Sequence record: OK428535.1
Source of the DNA: Escherichia phage vB_EcoM_Lh1B
Strand: one strand, 5' to 3'
Length of the DNA stretch: 64,000 bases
Each line of letters opens with the position of its first letter. Within the stretch, counting starts at the first letter, position 1. Both the position numbers and the translations under genes were made by a program. The notes below the pieces were generated by a model. The model saw only the letters and a program-made list of their open reading frames with translations, was not told where the DNA came from and did not search any database. Of this stretch, positions 3,301 to 63,288 are shown piece after piece.

Positions 3301-3584
3301 TGAAACTCGAAGGTTATATTGTTACTGATAAGCCGTTTGTTGAGGCTAACCTTTCACGTTCTCAAGTTGTCTATAAAGACATCGATGTCCCTGCTGAAAT
3401 TGTTAAAGCGAANCCCAGCTGGCNAATCAACCNCGTTTCTTTGGAAATCACNAANCCGTTTATCAACGANCCAACCGNCCCATTTGTCGACATGGGTAAT
3501 TTCCGCGAGATTCTTTCCCCGCATCAATACCAGACAGTTGCACAGAAGAAAGGGAAGCTGCTCATTGAAACGTTGAGTGTGTAG
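3300..3584 (+). CDS. hypothetical protein (94 aa)
   Basis: ATG overlaps upstream stop (TAATG); AAGGAG upstream; n-masked middle. Confidence 0.55.
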   Translation: MKLEGYIVTDKPFVEANLSRSQVVYKDIDVPAEIVKAXPSWXINXVSLEIXXPFINXPTXPFVDMGNFREILSPHQYQTVAQKKGKLLIETLSV

Positions 3585-4251: not shown

Positions 4252-4256
4252 AATAT

Positions 4257-4283
4257 CTCAGATATATATTACCTAGGTGAGAG
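4257..4283 (+). promoter_or_regulatory. class A upstream motif (phage promoter-like)
   Basis: CTCAGATATATATTACCTAGGTGAGAG; near-identical copy at 62815-62840. Confidence 0.5.
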
Positions 4284-4303
4284 TTAAGAGATTAACTCAA
4301 CTG

Positions 4304-4331
4304 GCTACCCTCGGGTAGCCTATTCTTTTTT
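4304..4331 (+). terminator. intrinsic terminator
   Basis: GGCTACCC-TCG-GGTAGCC hairpin followed by TATTCTTTTTT. Confidence 0.75.
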
Positions 4332-4334
4332 AAA

Positions 4335-4350
4335 CCAATCGACTATAGAG
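4335..4350 (+). promoter_or_regulatory. class B upstream motif
   Basis: CCAATCGACTATAGAG directly after terminator T-run, about 20 nt before ATG. Confidence 0.4.
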
Positions 4351-4356
4351 TAAAAC

Positions 4357-4758
4357 ATGACTATCAAGAAGTTCTTACAAGCAGTAGTAGTTCTGGCCGC
4401 ATGTGGTATTGCAGCAACTTATGCTTTCGATAAGCCAGACGTGACTGAATACACATCAGCTGATTCGGATTATGGCATTGCACCGAATGAAAAACCGGAA
4501 CTGATGCGTGAGGTCGAACAGTTACAAATCTACAGACTGACGGACGGTAAGAACTGCACAGGGCTGGTTATCGCTGATAAGAAATTGAAAATGTATCAGC
4601 GGTTAATCGACATATCGTGCAATCAACCAAAAGTCACCTCGGTCAGTGTATCGCCACTGGAATTACCGAATTTGGTTGCTGTGAGCTTTTATCACAACGA
4701 TGTGCTCGTCGGTCGCATCACCCTCAATCGTGGAGATATCAAAAATGAAATGCAATAA
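4357..4758 (+). CDS. putative lipoprotein (133 aa)
   Basis: N-terminus MTIKKFLQAVVVLAAC with LAAC lipobox-like signal; preceded by terminator and conserved upstream motifs. Confidence 0.6.
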   Translation: MTIKKFLQAVVVLAACGIAATYAFDKPDVTEYTSADSDYGIAPNEKPELMREVEQLQIYRLTDGKNCTGLVIADKKLKMYQRLIDISCNQPKVTSVSVSPLELPNLVAVSFYHNDVLVGRITLNRGDIKNEMQ

Positions 4759-5236
4759 CGTCAATCGCCNCTTGGCCAAAGTGGTGCTTTTTACTGTGCT
4801 GTTGATGGCAGTTGTTGTTGGGCTACGGATTTCTAAGGCACGCGCTGACGAATTCAGCGGGTTCCAGGGCAGTATTAACGGCAGCATTCCAGCATATACC
4901 CGCACCATCAATCTTAATGATAAGCCGTTCTGGTGCAATGCGCGTAAGCTGCTTAAGAAACAGTGTCGTGTAGTTGACATATCCTTCAACGGTCGTGTCG
5001 CTATCGTACACCGTCCTGGCGATAAAGATTGCCCAGGTGGTTGGTGGGGTGCAGTCGACCGTCACAATGGTGACGCGTTATGGCTTATCCCTAATCGTGA
5101 TGAACTATCAGTGGAGAAAATTTGCAGCAAAGATTTCAGGGCCGGTTTTGTACAGCGACCGGATACCAAAACTCTGGCCTCCATCGCTATGTACTACGGT
5201 ATGGAAACCATCAAAACAATCGACTATTCAGAATAA
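4745..5236 (+). CDS. small exported/membrane-anchored 4-Cys protein (paralog family member)
   Basis: Start set to ATG 4745 (GGAG upstream, 14-nt overlap with previous gene); hydrophobic N-terminus; PFWC motif and 4 Cys shared with next gene. Confidence 0.6.
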   Translation: MKCNNVNRXLAKVVLFTVLLMAVVVGLRISKARADEFSGFQGSINGSIPAYTRTINLNDKPFWCNARKLLKKQCRVVDISFNGRVAIVHRPGDKDCPGGWWGAVDRHNGDALWLIPNRDELSVEKICSKDFRAGFVQRPDTKTLASIAMYYGMETIKTIDYSE

Positions 5237-5258
5237 CTCAAAAAATTGAGGTACTATT

Positions 5259-5669
5259 ATGAAACATTTTTTATTACCAGTTTTACTTGCTACTCTGGCC
5301 ATTAGCTTCTTCGCTCGCGCTGGAAGTATCGAGTTACCAAAAGTTGTTAACGATCACGAATACGGCGGGCCGTTCTGGTGCCAGAACTCTGACGTACAAG
5401 GCGGTAGCTGTCAGATCGTTGCGATGTCCGATAACAACCGTTACCTGTTAGTGAAAACGATGGGCGGTGTCGCATGTGGCGACCCTGAATACGGGGTTAT
5501 TAACATGGCAACAGGTCAGGCCGAATCCATGAACTACAATGATAACCAAGCCTGCAGTGGTGAAGCCGTTGCTGAGTTTACTCGCGACCCAGGTGATAAT
5601 GCCCTGACGGTTATCATGTACGACCCTACGATTAAGAAAAACGTGGGCATCAATAAACTCGACTTTTAA
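5259..5669 (+). CDS. small secreted 4-Cys protein (paralog family member)
   Basis: Signal-peptide-like MKHFLLPVLLATLAISFFARAGS; PFWC motif; 4 Cys. Confidence 0.65.
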   Translation: MKHFLLPVLLATLAISFFARAGSIELPKVVNDHEYGGPFWCQNSDVQGGSCQIVAMSDNNRYLLVKTMGGVACGDPEYGVINMATGQAESMNYNDNQACSGEAVAEFTRDPGDNALTVIMYDPTIKKNVGINKLDF

Positions 5670-5682
5670 GTAAGGAAACAAC

Positions 5683-6066
5683 ATGCGTGGACTTATGGGT
5701 ATTATCGCGGCGGTGTTCTTGACCGCTTCTGCTTCAGCTACAACCAGCGTAGAAGATTTACTGCCAGGCACACCGTATCAGTACAACCCGCCTTCATTCG
5801 AAGTCTGTACTGGCGACAATGGCAGATGTGAAGAAGTCAGCCGTCACGACGAGTATATCCTGGTCCACGCAAAGGGCGAGGAAACTTGTCCGGCTGGTTA
5901 CTACTTCTTGTTGAACTCAAAGGCACAAGAGATTGTGCCGGTAGAGACAATAACGTGCGACCCGACGCTTCGCGCGTCGCTCGCTTACAATACGAAAACC
6001 AAACAACGCCTCCTGGTTATTGAACAGCAAGGGGTGGTGCGTGGTTCAGTAGCGCTCGACCAGTAA
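5683..6066 (+). CDS. small secreted 4-Cys protein (paralog family member)
   Basis: Signal-peptide-like MRGLMGIIAAVFLTASASA; C-x7-C plus two further Cys; AAGGAAA upstream. Confidence 0.65.
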   Translation: MRGLMGIIAAVFLTASASATTSVEDLLPGTPYQYNPPSFEVCTGDNGRCEEVSRHDEYILVHAKGEETCPAGYYFLLNSKAQEIVPVETITCDPTLRASLAYNTKTKQRLLVIEQQGVVRGSVALDQ

Positions 6067-6077
6067 CCGAAAAGTTT

Positions 6078-6100
6078 TCAGACAGATGTTATAACGTGAG
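6078..6100 (+). promoter_or_regulatory. class A upstream motif, divergent copy
   Basis: TCAGACAGATGTTATAACGTGAG followed by small hairpin 6096-6117. Confidence 0.35.
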
Positions 6101-6122
6101 ATGACGACCCATCTCACTTTGG

Positions 6123-6166
6123 CCCTGCGGTGATTTCCCCAACACTTAGCCGCAGGGTCCTTTTTA
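6123..6166 (+). terminator. hairpin with T-run (terminator/attenuator-like, long loop)
   Basis: CCCTGCGG...CCGCAGGG stem with about 20-nt loop followed by TCCTTTTT. Confidence 0.4.
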
Positions 6167-7473: not shown

Positions 7474-9984
7474 ATGCACAAGGTCGAACGTATCATTTTN
7501 AAAGNNTTTACCGGCATGGGGTTACATGAAANNNAAANNTTTGATTTCACCCTTAANTCAACCGTTACCANCATCCTCGGTGGCAACGGCTGCGGTAAAA
7601 CAAGCCTCCTGTCTGTTTTTCTCCCCTTAGCTCCAGCAAAATCAGAATTCCGTGAAGGTGGTTCCTACACTAACTACGCGTTAGTTGGGGACGACCGTCT
7701 TAAGTTTGAAGTCCTGCGTCGTGGCTCTTCTCTGTCTTGTAGTATTTTCAATATCACTAAAGGTGTCTCCATCGTAGACTCGGTAAACGCCAAAGTTTAC
7801 AACTCCATGGTGGAGCAATTAACCGGAATCACCAAAGAAATCAAAGAGTTAATTAATGGTGAGACCTTATTAACTGACGCCACTACCGAAGTTCGTCGTA
7901 AATGGTTTACGTTAATGTCAGAATCTGATCTGACGTACGTTGTTGGTTGCTATCGACGTTTGCGTAAACTCGCTTCCAGTTTAAGTGGGGCCATTGAGCA
8001 CACCGGCCGTAAAATCGGTGAGGCAAAAATGCGCGTGGTGGACGATGAAGAAGATCGTGCACGTTTAGAAGTTCGTTTGAAAGAACTCGATGCTGAGCTT
8101 CAGGAATTAAACCGCACAATTGAAGCGAGACCCGGTTTAGATAACGCCGTTTCGGTTGATAGTATCCGGAAACGCATTGCTTCGTTGCAACCGGCTGTAA
8201 AACTCATTATGGAACGTTATGGCGTTCTGCCTTCTGACGAACTGATTAACGAGTTTCAAAGTCGTGTGGTTGCCTGGCGTGAGCAAGCTGCCTCTGCTGA
8301 AACTGAATGCAACATGTACAATAAAGAGTTGTCACAGCTACTGGATGAGGAGTCGCGTCAAGCGTATCTGATGCGCAACCATACCGGTCTAAAACAAACA
8401 ATCGACAGCTTAAAACAGGAACTGGCAACGTTCCAACAGAACTGGATGTTCCCGGCTCTGTTTGAAGGTACCCGCATTGATGTGGATAGCATTCAGAACG
8501 CGTTAAACGATGCCTGTAACTGGAATTTACCGTTGTCCATGCATCTGGACCAGTTAAAGACAACAGATCGCCTGGGAGCGTTAGAGAAGCGTTTACAGGG
8601 TATGGATTTAACCTCTGCGGGTCTATCTGAAAAGCTGCAACGTTGTGAGAATGTGCTACACGGTTTATACCACGACCGTCAACACTTCTTAGAAACTGCA
8701 GAAGTTGATTGTCCACAGTGTAACCACCGTTTCCGTCCTGGGATTCGTAAGTCGTTACCTGAAATTGAAAAGGCCATCAACGATAATGAAGGTTGGAAGA
8801 AGCAGCTGAAAGACGAAATGGATAGTCTTTTGCGTGACCGCAAAGAGATTGAAGAGGACGTCCGTAGCTTACGTACGATTCGCGAAATCGTCATGTCGTA
8901 TTCCAACCATCCTGTTGTCGGTTTGTTTTTCCGTAAACTGCAGGAGCTGGATATCTTCACCACGGCGCGGGATCGTTACGGTGCCATTGCACGTGCCTTT
9001 ACTGAAGAGCTAGATTCGGCCATGATGTATCTGCGTCAATCGGCGAAGCTTGCAACAGCGGAACGGGAATGGCAAGAGGCTGTTGCCGCAGTAGGTAACG
9101 TTGATGGTGCGCTGAGCCAGAAAATTGAACATATCCGTTCACAACTGGACGGGGCTAACCGTCGACTGATAGAATACCGCAGACAAGCCAATGAGCTGGA
9201 ACGCGAAACCACCCAACTGCAACAAACCAAAGAAGCAATCGAACGTTTCCAAAAAGGCTACGAACATCTGGTATCGGAAATGAACATCTCCGTTAACAAC
9301 GTCGTGGTTCGTGAGTTGTTAAACCGACGCGAAGCGAAGCTCGATGCGTATACTTCAGCTCGTGAACGGTTTCGTCAAATGGAAGGGGCTATTGCACGTT
9401 TAGCGGAATTGGAAAAAGAGCAAGCTGAGTTGCTCAAAGAACACCATCNNGNCNGATTGATTATCAATGCCGTCTCACCCGAAAAAGGATTATTGCGTCG
9501 TTACTTTTATGCTGCGATTACCCGCATCATGGATTTAATGAATCGGTATATCGAAATGGTGTGGGCATATCCGATGCAGGTTATTCCATGCGATCTAACC
9601 GACGGGGATTTGGATTATACTTTCCCGGTGCGATTAAAAGACCATGAAGAACTGGTGCCGGATGTGAAGAAAGGTTCGAAGGCACAGCGTATTATCTTTA
9701 ACATGATGTTTCGTTTAACGGCGTATAAAGCGCTTGGTTTACAAAACTATCCTTTGTTNTTNGATNAANCCNCNNAAGGCATGGATGAANAACANAAAAA
9801 NCGCCTGGTCAACTTCTTTAAATCGTTGGNGTTGTTGGGGGAGTTTTCTNAANTGCTGGTCGTTTCGCATGAAGCGGAAGTTCATTCTAAACTTAACGAA
9901 GCCACCTACTGTGTCGTGGAGCCAGAAGGTGTAACGCTTCCACCGGTTTATAACGAAGGGGTAATAATCAAATATGCATCATAA
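7474..9984 (+). CDS. SbcC/Rad50-like SMC-family ATPase
   Basis: Walker A GGNGCGKTS near N-terminus; long predicted coiled-coil middle with CPQC (CxxC hook-like) near residue 410; C-terminal ...LVVSHEAEV after partly n-masked Walker B/signature region. Confidence 0.75.
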   Translation: MHKVERIIXKXFTGMGLHEXXXFDFTLXSTVTXILGGNGCGKTSLLSVFLPLAPAKSEFREGGSYTNYALVGDDRLKFEVLRRGSSLSCSIFNITKGVSIVDSVNAKVYNSMVEQLTGITKEIKELINGETLLTDATTEVRRKWFTLMSESDLTYVVGCYRRLRKLASSLSGAIEHTGRKIGEAKMRVVDDEEDRARLEVRLKELDAELQELNRTIEARPGLDNAVSVDSIRKRIASLQPAVKLIMERYGVLPSDELINEFQSRVVAWREQAASAETECNMYNKELSQLLDEESRQAYLMRNHTGLKQTIDSLKQELATFQQNWMFPALFEGTRIDVDSIQNALNDACNWNLPLSMHLDQLKTTDRLGALEKRLQGMDLTSAGLSEKLQRCENVLHGLYHDRQHFLETAEVDCPQCNHRFRPGIRKSLPEIEKAINDNEGWKKQLKDEMDSLLRDRKEIEEDVRSLRTIREIVMSYSNHPVVGLFFRKLQELDIFTTARDRYGAIARAFTEELDSAMMYLRQSAKLATAEREWQEAVAAVGNVDGALSQKIEHIRSQLDGANRRLIEYRRQANELERETTQLQQTKEAIERFQKGYEHLVSEMNISVNNVVVRELLNRREAKLDAYTSARERFRQMEGAIARLAELEKEQAELLKEHHXXXLIINAVSPEKGLLRRYFYAAITRIMDLMNRYIEMVWAYPMQVIPCDLTDGDLDYTFPVRLKDHEELVPDVKKGSKAQRIIFNMMFRLTAYKALGLQNYPLXXDXXXXGMDEXXKXRLVNFFKSLXLLGEFSXXLVVSHEAEVHSKLNEATYCVVEPEGVTLPPVYNEGVIIKYAS

Positions 9985-18531: not shown

Positions 18532-18555
18532 AATTAAAAACTCTCCGAGGTGAGC

Positions 18556-19065
18556 ATGATAGCATCAGTTTTCAAACTGCTTCCATTCTTACAAATGCTG
18601 TGGGAAGCATTTAAACCGGGCGAGGGGGAGAAAGTAACACGAGCCGGGAAAATAGTGACACTAGTGATAGTGGCACTGATCGCGTTCTCTGCATTTGTCT
18701 CATACGCCTACATTGTTCAATACCACACACTGGTTAGCGTTCAATCGCGTACTCAGTATCTGGAGATATCCTATAAGGAGCTAAAAGAGAAGTCCGATCA
18801 TGGCGAAGTGGAGAACAATAAGTTGTACGATCGTCTCTTCACGTGCCTGGGTTCTCGACCGCCATATGATGGTACCAAATCTCCAACAGGAACAGGCACT
18901 GAGGCCGCGGTTCCGCCTGTANAAANCAANCCNGTAANNCCNCCGGCNCCGTTNAATCCNTCTANCCCNCCNNCCAAGAAATACCNGGCCNCTTCTCNCC
19001 CGGTAGGGTCGCAGGAGGCAAATGATTTCCGACAGGAGATTATCAGTACGCTTAATAATCCATGA
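18556..19065 (+). CDS. membrane protein with N-terminal TM helix and Pro-rich C-terminal region
   Basis: Start set to ATG 18556 (GAGGTGA upstream); TM IVTLVIVALIAFSAFVSYAYIV; charged helical segment; n-masked Pro-rich region. Confidence 0.55.
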   Translation: MIASVFKLLPFLQMLWEAFKPGEGEKVTRAGKIVTLVIVALIAFSAFVSYAYIVQYHTLVSVQSRTQYLEISYKELKEKSDHGEVENNKLYDRLFTCLGSRPPYDGTKSPTGTGTEAAVPPVXXXXVXXPXPXNXSXXXXKKYXAXSXPVGSQEANDFRQEIISTLNNP

Positions 19066-19074
19066 GGAGCATAC

Positions 19075-19554
19075 ATGAAGTTATTTTTGGTGGCGATACT
19101 GGTGCTATTGTTGACAGGATGCCCTGGAGCCATCCGTCACGTAGACCCAGATTACTCCTCAACCGGAGATTGGCCTTTTCGTCCTTTAGAACACCCACCA
19201 GTTTATGCTGGTGGGAACAGTCCTGAGGCGAAAAAGCTGGCAGGGAAAATGTTTGTTGCGGATGTGAACGCTTATGCTTATTACGTTTATCTGTACGCTA
19301 AGTCGTTGAACAATTACGCAGAAGCTAAGGGGTGGCGCACCCCGATGGCCGCACCGCTTTGTGAAGAGTTTATTCGCCCCACTCTTCATGATATACCCTC
19401 CGGGATATATCTCGACCCTGGTTCTCGTAGCCCTCAAGACATTAGTCGTGATTTGTCACGACAGATTAAGTCNCTCATTCGCAGCTATCGCGAAGACAGA
19501 GAGTCTTTTAATCATGCCTACGAACGGCACAAAAGTAGTTGCCTTGTGCAATGA
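19075..19554 (+). CDS. putative lipoprotein (159 aa)
   Basis: MKLFLVAILVLLLTGC lipobox-like LTGC; followed by terminator. Confidence 0.6.
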   Translation: MKLFLVAILVLLLTGCPGAIRHVDPDYSSTGDWPFRPLEHPPVYAGGNSPEAKKLAGKMFVADVNAYAYYVYLYAKSLNNYAEAKGWRTPMAAPLCEEFIRPTLHDIPSGIYLDPGSRSPQDISRDLSRQIKXLIRSYREDRESFNHAYERHKSSCLVQ

Positions 19555-62814: not shown

Positions 62815-62840
62815 CTGAGATATATATTACTTAGGTGAGC
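62815..62840 (+). promoter_or_regulatory. class A upstream motif (phage promoter-like)
   Basis: CTGAGATATATATTACTTAGGTGAGC; downstream of terminator, followed by hairpin AGCGTTA-CACG-TAACGCT (62838-62856). Confidence 0.5.
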
Positions 62841-62856
62841 GTTACACGTTAACGCT

Positions 62857-62872
62857 TTAATCGACTATTACC
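62857..62872 (+). promoter_or_regulatory. class B upstream motif
   Basis: TTAATCGACTATTACC after hairpin, before GAAGGAG RBS. Confidence 0.45.
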
Positions 62873-62889
62873 CAGAAGGAGTATTTACA

Positions 62890-63288
62890 ATGACTAACCA
62901 ACTACGCCAAGACCCGTTTGTTGCCATGATGCTTTGTGCTAAAGCCGAGAGCAACGAAGCCGATTTAATTCGTCTGTTGACTGATGACGAATACCTTATC
63001 TCTGAACGTGATAAACGTTTAGAAGAACTCTATAAGCCAGAAACCGGTGAATCGCTCGGTAATCAAAACGCCTGGAAATTTCTTATTCTCGTAGCTGATG
63101 AAAAATGGCGAGCAGAAAATCCCATCGTCTGCGATATTACAGACTTACCGTACAAATACGGCGGACTCATCACTAGCGACCTGCATCTTAAAGCGTTCTT
63201 TGCTGGTGAAGCAATTCAAGAACTGCAAGATGTTCTTGTTACAGCAACAAACACTTTGAGACGTTTACGCGCTGAGCAGCTAATCTGA
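62890..63288 (+). CDS. hypothetical protein (132 aa)
   Basis: GAAGGAG upstream; preceded by class A/class B motifs. Confidence 0.6.
   Translation: MTNQLRQDPFVAMMLCAKAESNEADLIRLLTDDEYLISERDKRLEELYKPETGESLGNQNAWKFLILVADEKWRAENPIVCDITDLPYKYGGLITSDLHLKAFFAGEAIQELQDVLVTATNTLRRLRAEQLI

Follow-up and report, generated by a model that had tools for sequence, protein, structure and literature searches.

A conserved array of four ancient paralogs encoding putatively exported all-beta proteins in an SPN3US-like jumbo phage

The window, that is, the whole 64,000-nucleotide stretch of Escherichia phage vB_EcoM_Lh1B (OK428535.1) analysed here, belongs to a Seoulvirus phage with 99.4 % identity to the SPFM phages, in agreement with the phage origin claimed in an earlier sequence-only reading. 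Positions 4357–6066 are occupied by four co-directional genes, the equivalents of SPN3US gp180–gp183, which are referred to below as P1–P4 (Table 1). Their coordinates agree with the annotated CDSs of SPN3US (SPN3US_0180 to SPN3US_0183) and of SPFM4, and the four consecutive genes for proteins of 127–163 aa described in the same reading were recovered as ORFs of 133, 163, 136 and 127 aa, all on the plus strand; the equivalents are labelled ‘hypothetical’ in all records. The start of P2 overlaps the stop of P1 by 14 nt and is preceded by GGAG 9 nt 5′ of the ATG at 4745, while the P2 sequence contains an ambiguous base (N) at 4770. Gene-order synteny is kept in four genera. The pN/pS values against SPN3US (0.10 for P1, 0.17 for P2, 0.03 for P3 and 0.10 for P4) show that the array genes are under purifying selection, and since they evolve no faster between close relatives than the neighbouring genes, no sign of an arms race is seen at that scale.

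Table 1. Positions of the array genes, of the elements predicted around them and of a spanin-like candidate pair elsewhere in the window
Feature	Position	Strand	Remarks
P1, homolog of SPN3US gp180, 133 aa	4357..4758	+	ORF; falls in phrog_9424
P2, homolog of gp181, 163 aa	4745..5236	+	ORF; phrog_17072
P3, homolog of gp182, 136 aa	5259..5669	+	ORF; phrog_8968
P4, homolog of gp183, 127 aa	5683..6066	+	ORF; phrog_5248
AT-rich promoter-like element tcAGATATATATTACcTAGGTGAG	4255..4281	+	conserved upstream of the array-containing unit
TATATTAC	4265	+	within the AT-rich promoter-like element 4255..4281
Leader hairpin (4281–4298), terminator-like GC hairpin (4303–4320) and T-run	4276..4331	+	fold, terminator scan
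TCGACTAT motif	4339..4346	+	11 nt before the start codon of P1
Two stable hairpins, then UCCUUUUU	6096..6166	+	terminator-like end of the four-gene unit
Spanin-like candidate pair	18550–19065 (N-terminal transmembrane segment) and 19075–19554 (LLTGC lipobox)

It is well supported that, in this SPN3US-like jumbo phage related to phiKZ, the four genes form a discrete transcription unit, with terminator-like hairpins on both sides. The downstream hairpins fold at –32.9 kcal/mol (z = –5.8), a value reached by none of 200 shuffles, and the leader region folds at –22.3 kcal/mol (z = –4.3). An AT-rich element of ~25 nt precedes the unit that contains the array in SPN3US, phiEaH2, ChrisDB, Machina, pSal-SNUABM-04 and STsAS; in the window, it recurs at position 62823. 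Early (virion RNA polymerase) promoters of jumbo phages have been described as highly conserved AT-rich motifs of ~10 nt (PMC7598289), and the element looks like an early promoter of this type. Judged from this upstream motif only, the array is probably expressed early, although the hairpin picked up by the terminator scan stands between the motif and P1, which counts against such timing. The TCGACTAT motif occurs six times in the window, always on the plus strand, against 1.6 copies expected (0 of 100 shuffles reach six); the copies include those before P1, before P3 (5220), before the gp184 homolog (6168) and at 62861.

Pairwise similarity beyond chance, which had been set in advance as the test of the proposed local duplication, was found in Smith–Waterman comparisons against 500 shuffles (z = 13.9 for P2–P3, 9.0 for P2–P4 and 3.5 for P3–P4) and in cross-matches of P2 (2.9e-8) and P4 (0.002) to phrog_8968. 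By these comparisons, P2, P3 and P4 are clear paralogs, each with the four invariant cysteines. P1 belongs with them as a more distant fourth paralog that has one cysteine pair: the P1 family is matched to the four-cysteine family by hhalign with a probability of 93.8 % (E 1.7e-7), and the P1 model is aligned with four-cysteine members by Foldseek at TM 0.5–0.6. The array therefore holds four family members, not three. The AF2 models of P1 (pLDDT 85.5, seven strands) and of the mature part of P3 (pLDDT 90.8, pTM 0.85) both show a compact all-beta domain and lack coiled coils. Identity between paralogs amounts to 15–30 %, and each paralog lineage is kept across three to four phage genera, with P4 orthologs in every genus examined; the duplications are thus ancient, so that the array did arise by duplication, as had been claimed, but not by a recent one. 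It is well supported that the locus encodes one small all-beta domain in four paralogous forms of ancient origin.

The cysteines are placed at C64-x9-C74, C96 and C127 in P2, at C41-x9-C51, C73 and C99 in P3 and at C42-x6-C49, C69 and C92 in P4, and the layout proposed for three of the proteins, C-x7-10-C with two further cysteines, therefore stands with its first-pair spacing corrected to x6–9. Exactly four cysteines follow residue 30 in all 35 four-cysteine family members. In P1, C67 and C88 are invariant in 23 homologs and the first pair is missing, the mature parts of the P1 family having exactly two cysteines. The literal PFWC strings noted earlier (KPFWCNARK and GPFWCQNSD) are both present, but the proline is variable, being replaced in SPN3US P3 (EFWC), phiEaH2 (LFWC) and STsAS P2 (LFSC), and the full PFWC string does not mark the family as a whole. 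The invariant cysteines also bear on the reading of these ORFs as unrelated sequences or non-genes with signal-like N-termini and cysteines acquired by chance, which could appeal to the single-sequence comparisons of P1 with P2–P4 (z = –1.3 to 2.7, not significant). Its probability is negligible: it is refuted by shuffle z-scores of up to 13.9, by cysteines invariant in 35 four-cysteine and 23 P1 homologs, by pN/pS values of 0.03–0.17, by the synteny kept in four genera and by the agreement of profile and fold that ties P1 to the family.

Signal sequences were scored heuristically, as a positive n-region, an h-region of 10–15 residues and a small-x-small site. All four N-termini combine positive charge with a subsequent hydrophobic stretch of 10–15 residues (12-residue Kyte–Doolittle maxima of 2.5–3.2), and the cleavage candidates listed for the four proteins are TYA↓F, ARA↓D, ARA↓G and ASA↓T. 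With the same features in 34 of the 35 four-cysteine homologs and in 22 of 22 P1 homologs in the heuristic scan, the export signals claimed in the sequence-only reading were upheld, and P1–P4 are probably exported to the space between the bacterial membranes. Conserved cysteine pairs combined with a Sec signal are a pattern typical of proteins oxidised in the periplasm. The suggestion of lipoboxes, which had been offered alongside signal sequences, fared less well. With the lipobox defined as [LVI][ASTVI][GAS]C closing the h-region and shared by orthologs, the LAAC pattern at residues 13–16 of P1 has no counterpart in P2–P4 and occurs in one of 22 P1-family clusters, that of SPN3US and the window; the P1 orthologs of STsAS and pEa_SNUABM_29 have no cysteine at this position. 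A lipoprotein family was rejected on these grounds, while P1 itself could be lipidated in this phage.

A periplasmic location would also suit lysis control, with the proteins acting as spanin-like parts or as lysis-inhibition sensors of the T4 RI/RIII type, and the P1/P2 overlap and the P1 lipobox pattern superficially resemble an overlapped spanin pair. The spanin pattern looked for was an i-spanin that has a transmembrane segment at its N-terminus and a coiled-coil periplasmic domain, with a short, proline-rich lipoprotein, the o-spanin, encoded after it or inside it. Here, the putative lipoprotein comes first, the P1 and P3 models are all-beta, the lipobox is missing from 21 of 22 P1-family clusters and the PHROGs have no assigned function, and P1/P2 was rejected as a spanin pair. 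Since, in addition, the single-gene homologs in bacterial islands described below are not accompanied by a holin or endolysin gene, the promoter-like element resembles early promoters and a more convincing spanin-like pair is present at another place in the window (Table 1), lysis control is regarded as very improbable.

In line with the earlier remark that the family was not recognised, P1–P4 gave no meaningful match to Pfam, NCBIfam or PADLOC (Pfam and PADLOC to E ≤ 1), and their PHROG matches were restricted to phrog_9424, phrog_17072, phrog_8968 and phrog_5248, all without assigned function. For 18 family members, a Pfam search at E ≤ 10 returned noise only, while a word-indexed protein search yielded close relatives only and Foldseek against BFVD the family itself only. 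Known anti-phage defence and superinfection-exclusion proteins were represented by no PADLOC match (E ≤ 1) and no annotated PHROG match. The family consists of 22 clusters among 1.84 billion and is limited to SPN3US-like phages (of Salmonella, Erwinia, E. coli and Proteus) and Enterobacterales chromosomes. SPN3US gp180–gp183 are not mentioned in the literature searched (the SPN3US infected-cell proteomics paper lay outside its scope), including the SPN3US essential-gene/head-structure paper and a 2023 mass-spectrometry paper; on the latter two, a reading as virion proteins was tentatively set aside, and their absence from the former is suggestive in favour of the envelope reading preferred below.

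The chromosomal members are found among ‘secreted proteins’ of Enterobacterales islands, for example WP_000642925.1 in E. coli O157:H7. Three clusters, P0055, P0060 and P0068, score 99.5, 90.3 and 52.7 bits against the family profile and share 47–50, 40–42 and 34–35 % identity, respectively, with P3-type proteins over trimmed alignment columns; by sequence, they are true family members. They resemble the phage proteins in length, signal peptide and four cysteines, and the C-termini are near-identical (TVVIYDPTIKKNVGLNTIDF against TVIMYDPTIKKNVGINKLDF). The bacterial copies nest within the P3-type clade and occur in E. coli in 78 of 5426 complete genomes, among them strains of O157:H7 and O111:H8. 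Unlike the four-gene array of the lytic phage, they are single-copy cargo of integrative islands, close to genes for defence, anti-restriction and toxin–antitoxin systems, with an AlpA / YfjP-GTPase / WYL / DUF932 / antirestriction / RadC / CbtA-CbeA context, where they lie directly 5′ of the DUF932 / antirestriction / RadC block and adjoin a pair comprising an OLD-family ATPase/nuclease and a UvrD-type helicase, with genes of an ABC-three-component system and an Mrr-domain protein as further neighbours. The occurrence of single P3-type genes in such CP4-57/CP4-6-like islands suggests that the domain acts autonomously, without any other phage protein, and that its target may be host-envelope or invader-derived.

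The product of an adjacent island gene combines a weakly Ivy-like N-terminal domain with a C-terminal four-cysteine domain (hhalign 61.6 %). The scores of the Ivy-like part are sub-threshold, at 19.2 bits against a Pfam cut-off of 21 and E 0.1 for the best PDB matches (Ivy, 1uuz and 4ps6), and its CENGSC (also CERGNC) is aligned to the CKPHDC loop of Ivy, with the catalytic-site-plugging histidine missing. Considered together, the island homologs, this fusion partner and the early-promoter-like element make an envelope-directed role plausible.

The bacterial P3-type homologs hold the slot of yfjS, downstream of the WYL regulator gene, and the family shows a distant likeness to YfjS and YafY (PF20494), which are likewise small exported proteins of enterobacterial mobile elements (CP4-57 and CP4-6 of E. 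coli K-12). The family HMM scores 13.5 bits against YfjS; in a search of 789 island ORFs, its matches comprised the full set of 30 YfjS/YafY homologs, and nothing else scored comparably. The hhalign probability for the family against YfjS is 79.2 %, or 33.5 % with another alignment, and the P1 family is linked to YfjS at P = 0.004–0.008. In the alignment, ‘GC-x-GG-YYYLVD...C’ corresponds to ‘TCPAGYYFLLN...C’, the two cysteines of YfjS fall on Cys3 and Cys4 of the family, and the C-terminal ‘G-R-h-h-h’ aligns with P1 too. PF20494 (gathering score 27 bits) was matched neither by P1–P4 (E ≤ 1) nor by 18 family members (E ≤ 10), whereas YfjS itself reaches 228.6 bits, and YfjS/YafY are lipoproteins with two cysteines, while P2–P4 have predicted cleavable signal peptides and four. 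Remote homology, and not membership of PF20494, is therefore the probable relation. The neighbours of YfjS, YfjT and YpjK, show no similarity to the family, and a genome-contig scan with YfjS gave only sequences of 87–100 % identity, too close to deepen the YfjS profile. YafY has been characterized as an inner-membrane lipoprotein without an assigned function, the overproduction of which activates the Cpx envelope-stress response (PMC6538781). A link to the flagellar regulon via yafY was rejected, as the FliA promoter inside yafY drives the downstream ykfB and not yafY.

The DUF932 / antirestriction / RadC block is typical anti-defence cargo, and with anti-restriction genes among the island neighbours, counter-defence fits the context as well as protection of the envelope does. 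The proteins would then bind host periplasmic proteases, envelope-stress sensors or abortive-infection triggers, so that the envelope would stay permissive to the phage, or to the island while it is being transferred. The early-promoter-like element fits such a host takeover, and the Cpx activation by the remotely similar YafY (PMC6538781) also speaks for counter-defence, although this effect of overproduction may be non-specific and the YfjS/YafY similarity is moderate (hhalign 33–79 %). No resemblance to any known periplasmic anti-defence protein was found, and counter-defence is considered unlikely.

Interference with the phage’s own receptor pathway, which would be disabled or masked from the periplasm to keep progeny or siblings from adsorbing to infected cells, is the mode of action of exported phage proteins of similar size, such as T5 Llp and Cor, and several paralogs could address several envelope components. 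The receptor of SPN3US has been reported to be the flagella (PMC11428620). The domain is common to the Erwinia and E. coli island homologs whatever the receptor, similarity to the Llp and Cor families is lacking, with PHROG matches only to families of unassigned function, and soluble periplasmic proteins differ from outer-leaflet lipoproteins, the lipobox of P1 not being conserved. Receptor interference is thus distinctly unlikely.

The preferred reading, to which a probability of only about 0.35 is assigned, is that the array encodes early-made periplasmic binders or inhibitors that shield the infected envelope, either by superinfection exclusion or by protection from wall-degrading enzymes. 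Early transcription would start at the conserved AT-rich element, acting as a promoter for the virion RNA polymerase; the proteins made would cross the inner membrane via Sec, be cleaved by signal peptidase I and acquire disulfide bonds through the host DsbA system. The mature proteins might then serve as stable periplasmic binding or inhibitor modules, each paralog with a different envelope-exposed target, and the envelope would be guarded against outside interference during the long jumbo-phage cycle, possibly by blocking the entry of other phages or by neutralising muralytic enzymes in the manner of T4 Spackle or Ivy-type inhibitors. The analogy lies in Ivy (PF08816), PliC/MliC and T4 Spackle being, like the array proteins, small, exported and disulfide-containing, with ~100–130 residues. 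Counting against envelope protection, the Ivy likeness is sub-threshold and resides in the neighbouring island protein, not in the phage proteins, and none of P1–P4 matches Ivy (PF08816). A wider proposal is rather unlikely: the proteins may belong to a hitherto unrecognised class of periplasmic immunity or exclusion modules common to lytic phiKZ-related jumbo phages and CP4-type defence islands of Enterobacterales, with horizontal transfer of the P3 type and distant kinship to YfjS/YafY. Every paralog would then counter a weapon of its own among those that penetrate the envelope or degrade the wall, which might be tail enzymes of phages or other muralytic proteins from outside the cell.

Work on phiKZ-related jumbo phages has centred on protection in the cytoplasm, namely, the protein-shelled phage nucleus by which related phages shield their DNA and the early infection vesicle, and to our knowledge, almost nothing is known of jumbo-phage activity in the periplasm. 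An array with probable early expression that is kept in at least four genera and has one paralog type in common with defence-rich enterobacterial islands is a candidate for exclusion or protection at the level of the envelope, and offers a first testable lead for yfjS and yafY of E. coli K-12 and for the ‘secreted protein’ of 78 of 5426 complete E. coli genomes. Should no phenotype be seen, it would represent an ordinary clade-specific family without an assigned function. If the wider proposal is true, jumbo phages would gain envelope-level protection on top of the phage nucleus, and YfjS/YafY-like proteins would receive their first function.

P1-P4 are firmly supported as a conserved operon made up of four ancient paralogs, whose products are small all-beta proteins of disulfide type that are predicted to be exported. 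Equally firm is the restriction of the family to SPN3US-like phages and to mobile islands of enterobacteria. The 1.7-kb array region is 99.4% identical to the Salmonella SPFM-series phages and 95.7% identical to SPN3US, which belong to Seoulvirus, a genus of 240-kb phiKZ-related jumbo phages. The ORFs match exactly the SPN3US_0180 to SPN3US_0183 CDSs, labelled 'hypothetical protein' in every record, and are tightly packed, with a 14-nt overlap followed by gaps of 22 and 13 nt. P1-P4 are real genes under purifying selection, as synonymous changes far exceed non-synonymous ones between the window and SPN3US (pN/pS 0.03-0.17, with similar values in flanking genes). The window contains 315 isolated, scattered N (e.g. 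at 4770, 3400-3500 and 7474-7560), giving X residues in many translations; the N at 4770 falls in P2 codon 9, inside the signal sequence, and leaves the analysis unaffected. Several of the GenBank records LR535903-LR535913 (SPFM5, 7, 9, 14, 15 and others) align here as 28-29 short shuffled pieces, with scrambled derived proteins (P0006-P0011 and P0061, the last carrying the blocks of P4 in reversed order), and this looks like an artefact of how these records were assembled or deposited.

Features of the array, its signals and related loci (window positions unless a fetched locus, L, is named)
Feature	Position	Strand	Description
P1	4357-4758	+	133 aa
P2	4745-5236	+	163 aa; GGAG ribosome-binding site 9 nt before ATG
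P3	5259-5669	+	136 aa
P4	5683-6066	+	127 aa
AT-rich element tcAGATATATATTACcTAGGTGAG	4255-4281		directly after stop of upstream gene
Hairpin and T-run upstream of P1	4303-4320		region z -4.3
Stable hairpin pair downstream of P4	6096-6159		followed by UCCUUUUU; z -5.8
TCGACTAT copies	4339, 5220, 6168, 36077, 62071, 62861	+	
Second element copy TATATTAC-TTAGGTGAG	62823-62895		then hairpin, TTTAATCGACTAT, ribosome-binding site, ATG at ~62890
Spanin-like first gene	18550-19065	+	N-terminal transmembrane segment, proline-rich tail
Spanin-like second gene	19075-19554	+	159 aa; clear lipobox LLTGC
Exported neighbour protein in islands	L012:10476-11414, L014:12585-13415, L017:9060-9947		weakly Ivy-like N-terminus, Pro/Ala-rich linker, C-terminal four-cysteine domain
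P0055, bacterial cluster			'secreted protein'; E. coli, Salmonella enterica, Citrobacter, Serratia; >390 contigs
P0060, bacterial cluster			E. coli
P0068, bacterial cluster			Edwardsiella tarda; several copies per genome

The export signals that the sequence-only reading attributed to all four proteins were recovered by a heuristic test, each N-terminus combining a basic start, a hydrophobic segment 10-15 residues long and a small-x-small site, with candidate cleavage at TYA↓F, ARA↓D, ARA↓G and ASA↓T in P1, P2, P3 and P4, respectively. By the same heuristic these features occur in 34 of 35 four-cysteine homologs and in all 22 P1 homologs, while the N-terminal sequence itself is poorly conserved. 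In a crude window-wide screen of ORFs of at least 80 aa, only six had a signal-type N-terminus, three of them in the array; P2 escaped only through the screen's choice of an in-frame ATG further upstream, at 4700. The lipobox noted earlier is present in P1 as LAAC but is not a family trait, being found in one of 22 P1-family clusters, and its cysteine is absent from 70%-identical orthologs, whereas the TYA↓F(D/E)KP site is conserved.

P2, P3 and P4 share a C-x6-9-C layout with two further cysteines, the spacing having first been read as x7-10. The PFWC motif proposed to link two of them occurs literally in KPFWCNARK and GPFWCQNSD, but its proline varies (EFWC in SPN3US P3), and the feature retained is an aromatic residue before Cys1. 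Smith-Waterman alignment of the mature parts placed P2-P3 (z 13.9) and P2-P4 (z 9.0) above 500/500 shuffles and P3-P4 (z 3.5) above 496/500, and the PHROG families of the three proteins cross-match, so that the suspected paralogy holds. Single-sequence pairwise comparison found no significant similarity between P1 and P2-P4. However, in profile-profile comparison with the four-cysteine family, the two invariant cysteines of the P1 family fall on Cys3 and Cys4, the probability of the match being 65.6% (E 5.8e-5) with 18 sequences and 93.8% (E 1.7e-7, 72 columns) with 35. AlphaFold2 gave confident models of the mature parts of P3 (pLDDT 90.8, pTM 0.85) and P1 (pLDDT 85.5), each a seven-stranded all-beta domain. 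In Foldseek searches of viral predicted structures, the P1 model retrieved its orthologs and then the top matches of the P3 model, the entries A0A1B2IBY1, A0A345BLK7, A0A1B2IDC2 and A0A8E7G1K3 (TM 0.50-0.61, probability 0.72-1.00). P1 thus belongs to the family as a diverged member whose first cysteine pair has been lost.

The array lies upstream of two unknown genes and an SbcC-like gene, gp186 in SPN3US, where it is essential. This position is kept in Seoulvirus, Erskinevirus (phiEaH2), Machinavirus (Machina, ChrisDB, pSal-SNUABM-04) and Wellingtonvirus (Kwan, pEa_SNUABM_11), each phage carrying one P1-type and two to three four-cysteine genes. In a neighbour-joining tree, built without bootstrap, the P2-type, P3-type, P4-type and Wellingtonvirus-specific lineages are separate. 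Since each spans several genera, the duplications, judged from this tree, are older than the phage genera; the local duplication read from the array thus stands as paralogy, but with duplications that predate those genera. In phage STsAS (L011), the P3-type gene is followed by a 535-bp gap (4411-4946) with no annotated P4-type gene. Just outside the window, approximately 5.5 kb upstream of the array, SPN3US gp172 (L001:281-490) encodes a 69-aa DUF1471 protein; this domain is presumably that of the enterobacterial YdgH/BhsA/McbA-type periplasmic stress proteins, and gp172 would be another host-like exported protein.

The early reading did not recognise the family, and scans of Pfam, NCBIfam and PADLOC likewise gave no match for P1-P4. 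With the mature-domain profile, HMMER was run exhaustively against 1.84 billion cluster representatives and returned only 22 clusters (E <= 0.001), all of 109-164 residues, the intact ones with a signal sequence and four cysteines. Most derive from contigs of jumbo-phage size and three are bacterial. One member, P0058, has 40 N-terminal residues unrelated to the family. Of 5426 complete E. coli genomes, 78 have the P0055 gene on the chromosome, O157:H7 and O111:H8 strains among them. Like the P0068 gene of Edwardsiella, it lies inside CP4-57/CP4-6-type integrative islands (at the thrW-proA site in O157:H7). Locally, AlpA, a YfjP-like GTPase, a WYL regulator (in E. coli) and small ORFs precede the family member, which is followed by DUF932, antirestriction, RadC/JAB, DUF987 and CbeA/CbtA genes. 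Further cargo of the E. coli islands includes an OLD-family ATPase/nuclease adjacent to a UvrD-type helicase, genes of an ABC-three-component system, a TrlF family AAA-like ATPase or an Mrr-domain protein; P0060 neighbours encode dynamin-like, YjcZ-family and patatin-family proteins. E. tarda strain DCF83 has three distinct copies of a 152-aa member (DCF83_11175, DCF83_14800, DCF83_16045), and the one E. tarda locus examined (L017) is within a CP4-like island. All three bacterial clusters nest in the P3-type clade, and P0055 is 47-50% identical to Seoulvirus/Erskinevirus P3, with an almost identical C-terminus, which speaks for horizontal transfer, in either direction, between islands and phages of this lineage.

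A remote relationship to the lipoproteins YfjS and YafY of the E. coli K-12 cryptic prophages is probable from profile comparisons, though not membership. The yfjS gene follows ypjK as the second gene downstream of yfjR, which encodes the WYL regulator; this slot resembles that of the P3-type gene in E. coli islands, and YfjS is an inner-membrane lipoprotein (Pfam PF20494, YfjS_YafY). The four-cysteine profile matched YfjS at 12-14 bits, its cysteines aligning with Cys3 and Cys4. Among 789 ORFs of island and YfjS-homolog loci, it ranked true members first, then all 30 YfjS/YafY homologs (E 3e-4 to 0.04), then C-terminal domains of island neighbour proteins; the other matches were isolated single ORFs (E 0.3-0.8). 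The hhalign probability against YfjS was 79% or 33%, varying with the alignment, and no family member tested reached the Pfam YfjS_YafY model. YafY is an inner-membrane lipoprotein of unknown function whose overproduction activates the Cpx response (PMC6538781). The neighbour protein, exported and 276-312 aa long, is encoded downstream of the family member in E. coli and upstream in Edwardsiella, and its C-terminal end matches the four-cysteine domain, each of the four cysteines being aligned (hhalign 61.6%, P 7.8e-5). Ivy is a periplasmic inhibitor of vertebrate lysozyme. The neighbour's N-terminus hints at a likeness to it, scoring 16.9-19.2 bits against Pfam Ivy, below the cut-off of 21, with Ivy structures 1uuz and 4ps6 as best PDB matches (E 0.1); the CKPHDC loop of Ivy aligns with CENGSC, keeping C-x4-C but not the key histidine.

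Hairpins with T-runs lie on both sides of the four-gene unit, and the tcAGATATATATTACcTAGGTGAG element precedes the array-containing unit nearly base for base in SPN3US, phiEaH2, ChrisDB, Machina, pSal-SNUABM-04 and STsAS. Early promoters of jumbo phages, used by the virion RNA polymerase, are phage-specific, highly conserved AT-rich sequences of ~10 nt that precede early operons and are centred near -10 (PMC7598289). Because the element fits this description, it may be a promoter for early transcription of the array, although the terminator-like hairpin between it and P1 is at odds with a simple early promoter. The layout around the second copy matches the region upstream of P1, and probably marks another early transcription unit. 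The TCGACTAT motif has six copies in the window, on one strand only, against 1.6 expected. Four of them lie 11-39 nt before the start codons of P1, P3, the gene after the array and the gene at 62890, and the motif might serve in promoter function, processing or translation.

Envelope protection or superinfection exclusion ranks first among the possible functions, tentatively, with a probability of roughly 0.35, because a lone P3-type gene persists in islands with defence and anti-restriction genes, because lytic phage and chromosomal island would both gain from excluding competitors, and because the array unit looks early. Counter-defence or host manipulation comes next but is unlikely, and interference with the receptor, which for SPN3US is flagella (PMC11428620), is somewhat more doubtful still. 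A role in lysis control is the least probable: the P1 and P3 models are all-beta, the P1 lipobox is not conserved and the bacterial copies stand alone, while the window holds a better spanin-like pair at 18550-19554, two adjacent genes in PHROGs of unknown function that look like a separated i-spanin/o-spanin-like pair.

For envelope protection or exclusion, the proteins would be exported by Sec and cleaved by signal peptidase, would fold oxidatively in the periplasm and might then serve as stable modules that bind or inhibit targets exposed at the envelope, of which the divergence of the paralogs would imply several. Such working would be analogous to that of T4 Spackle and Ivy-type inhibitors, without relatedness. 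Database entries for P1-P4 existed before, as hypothetical proteins and in PHROGs without an assigned function, but no discussion of SPN3US gp180-gp183 was found in the literature. New are the inclusion of P1, the extreme narrowness of the family, the operon with its early-promoter-like signal, a predicted fold with no known counterpart, the link to enterobacterial island proteins and, tentatively, those to YfjS/YafY and to the Ivy-like fusion. P1-P4 thus represent an uncharacterised variant among the small exported proteins of phages and mobile elements, and one that is easy to test.
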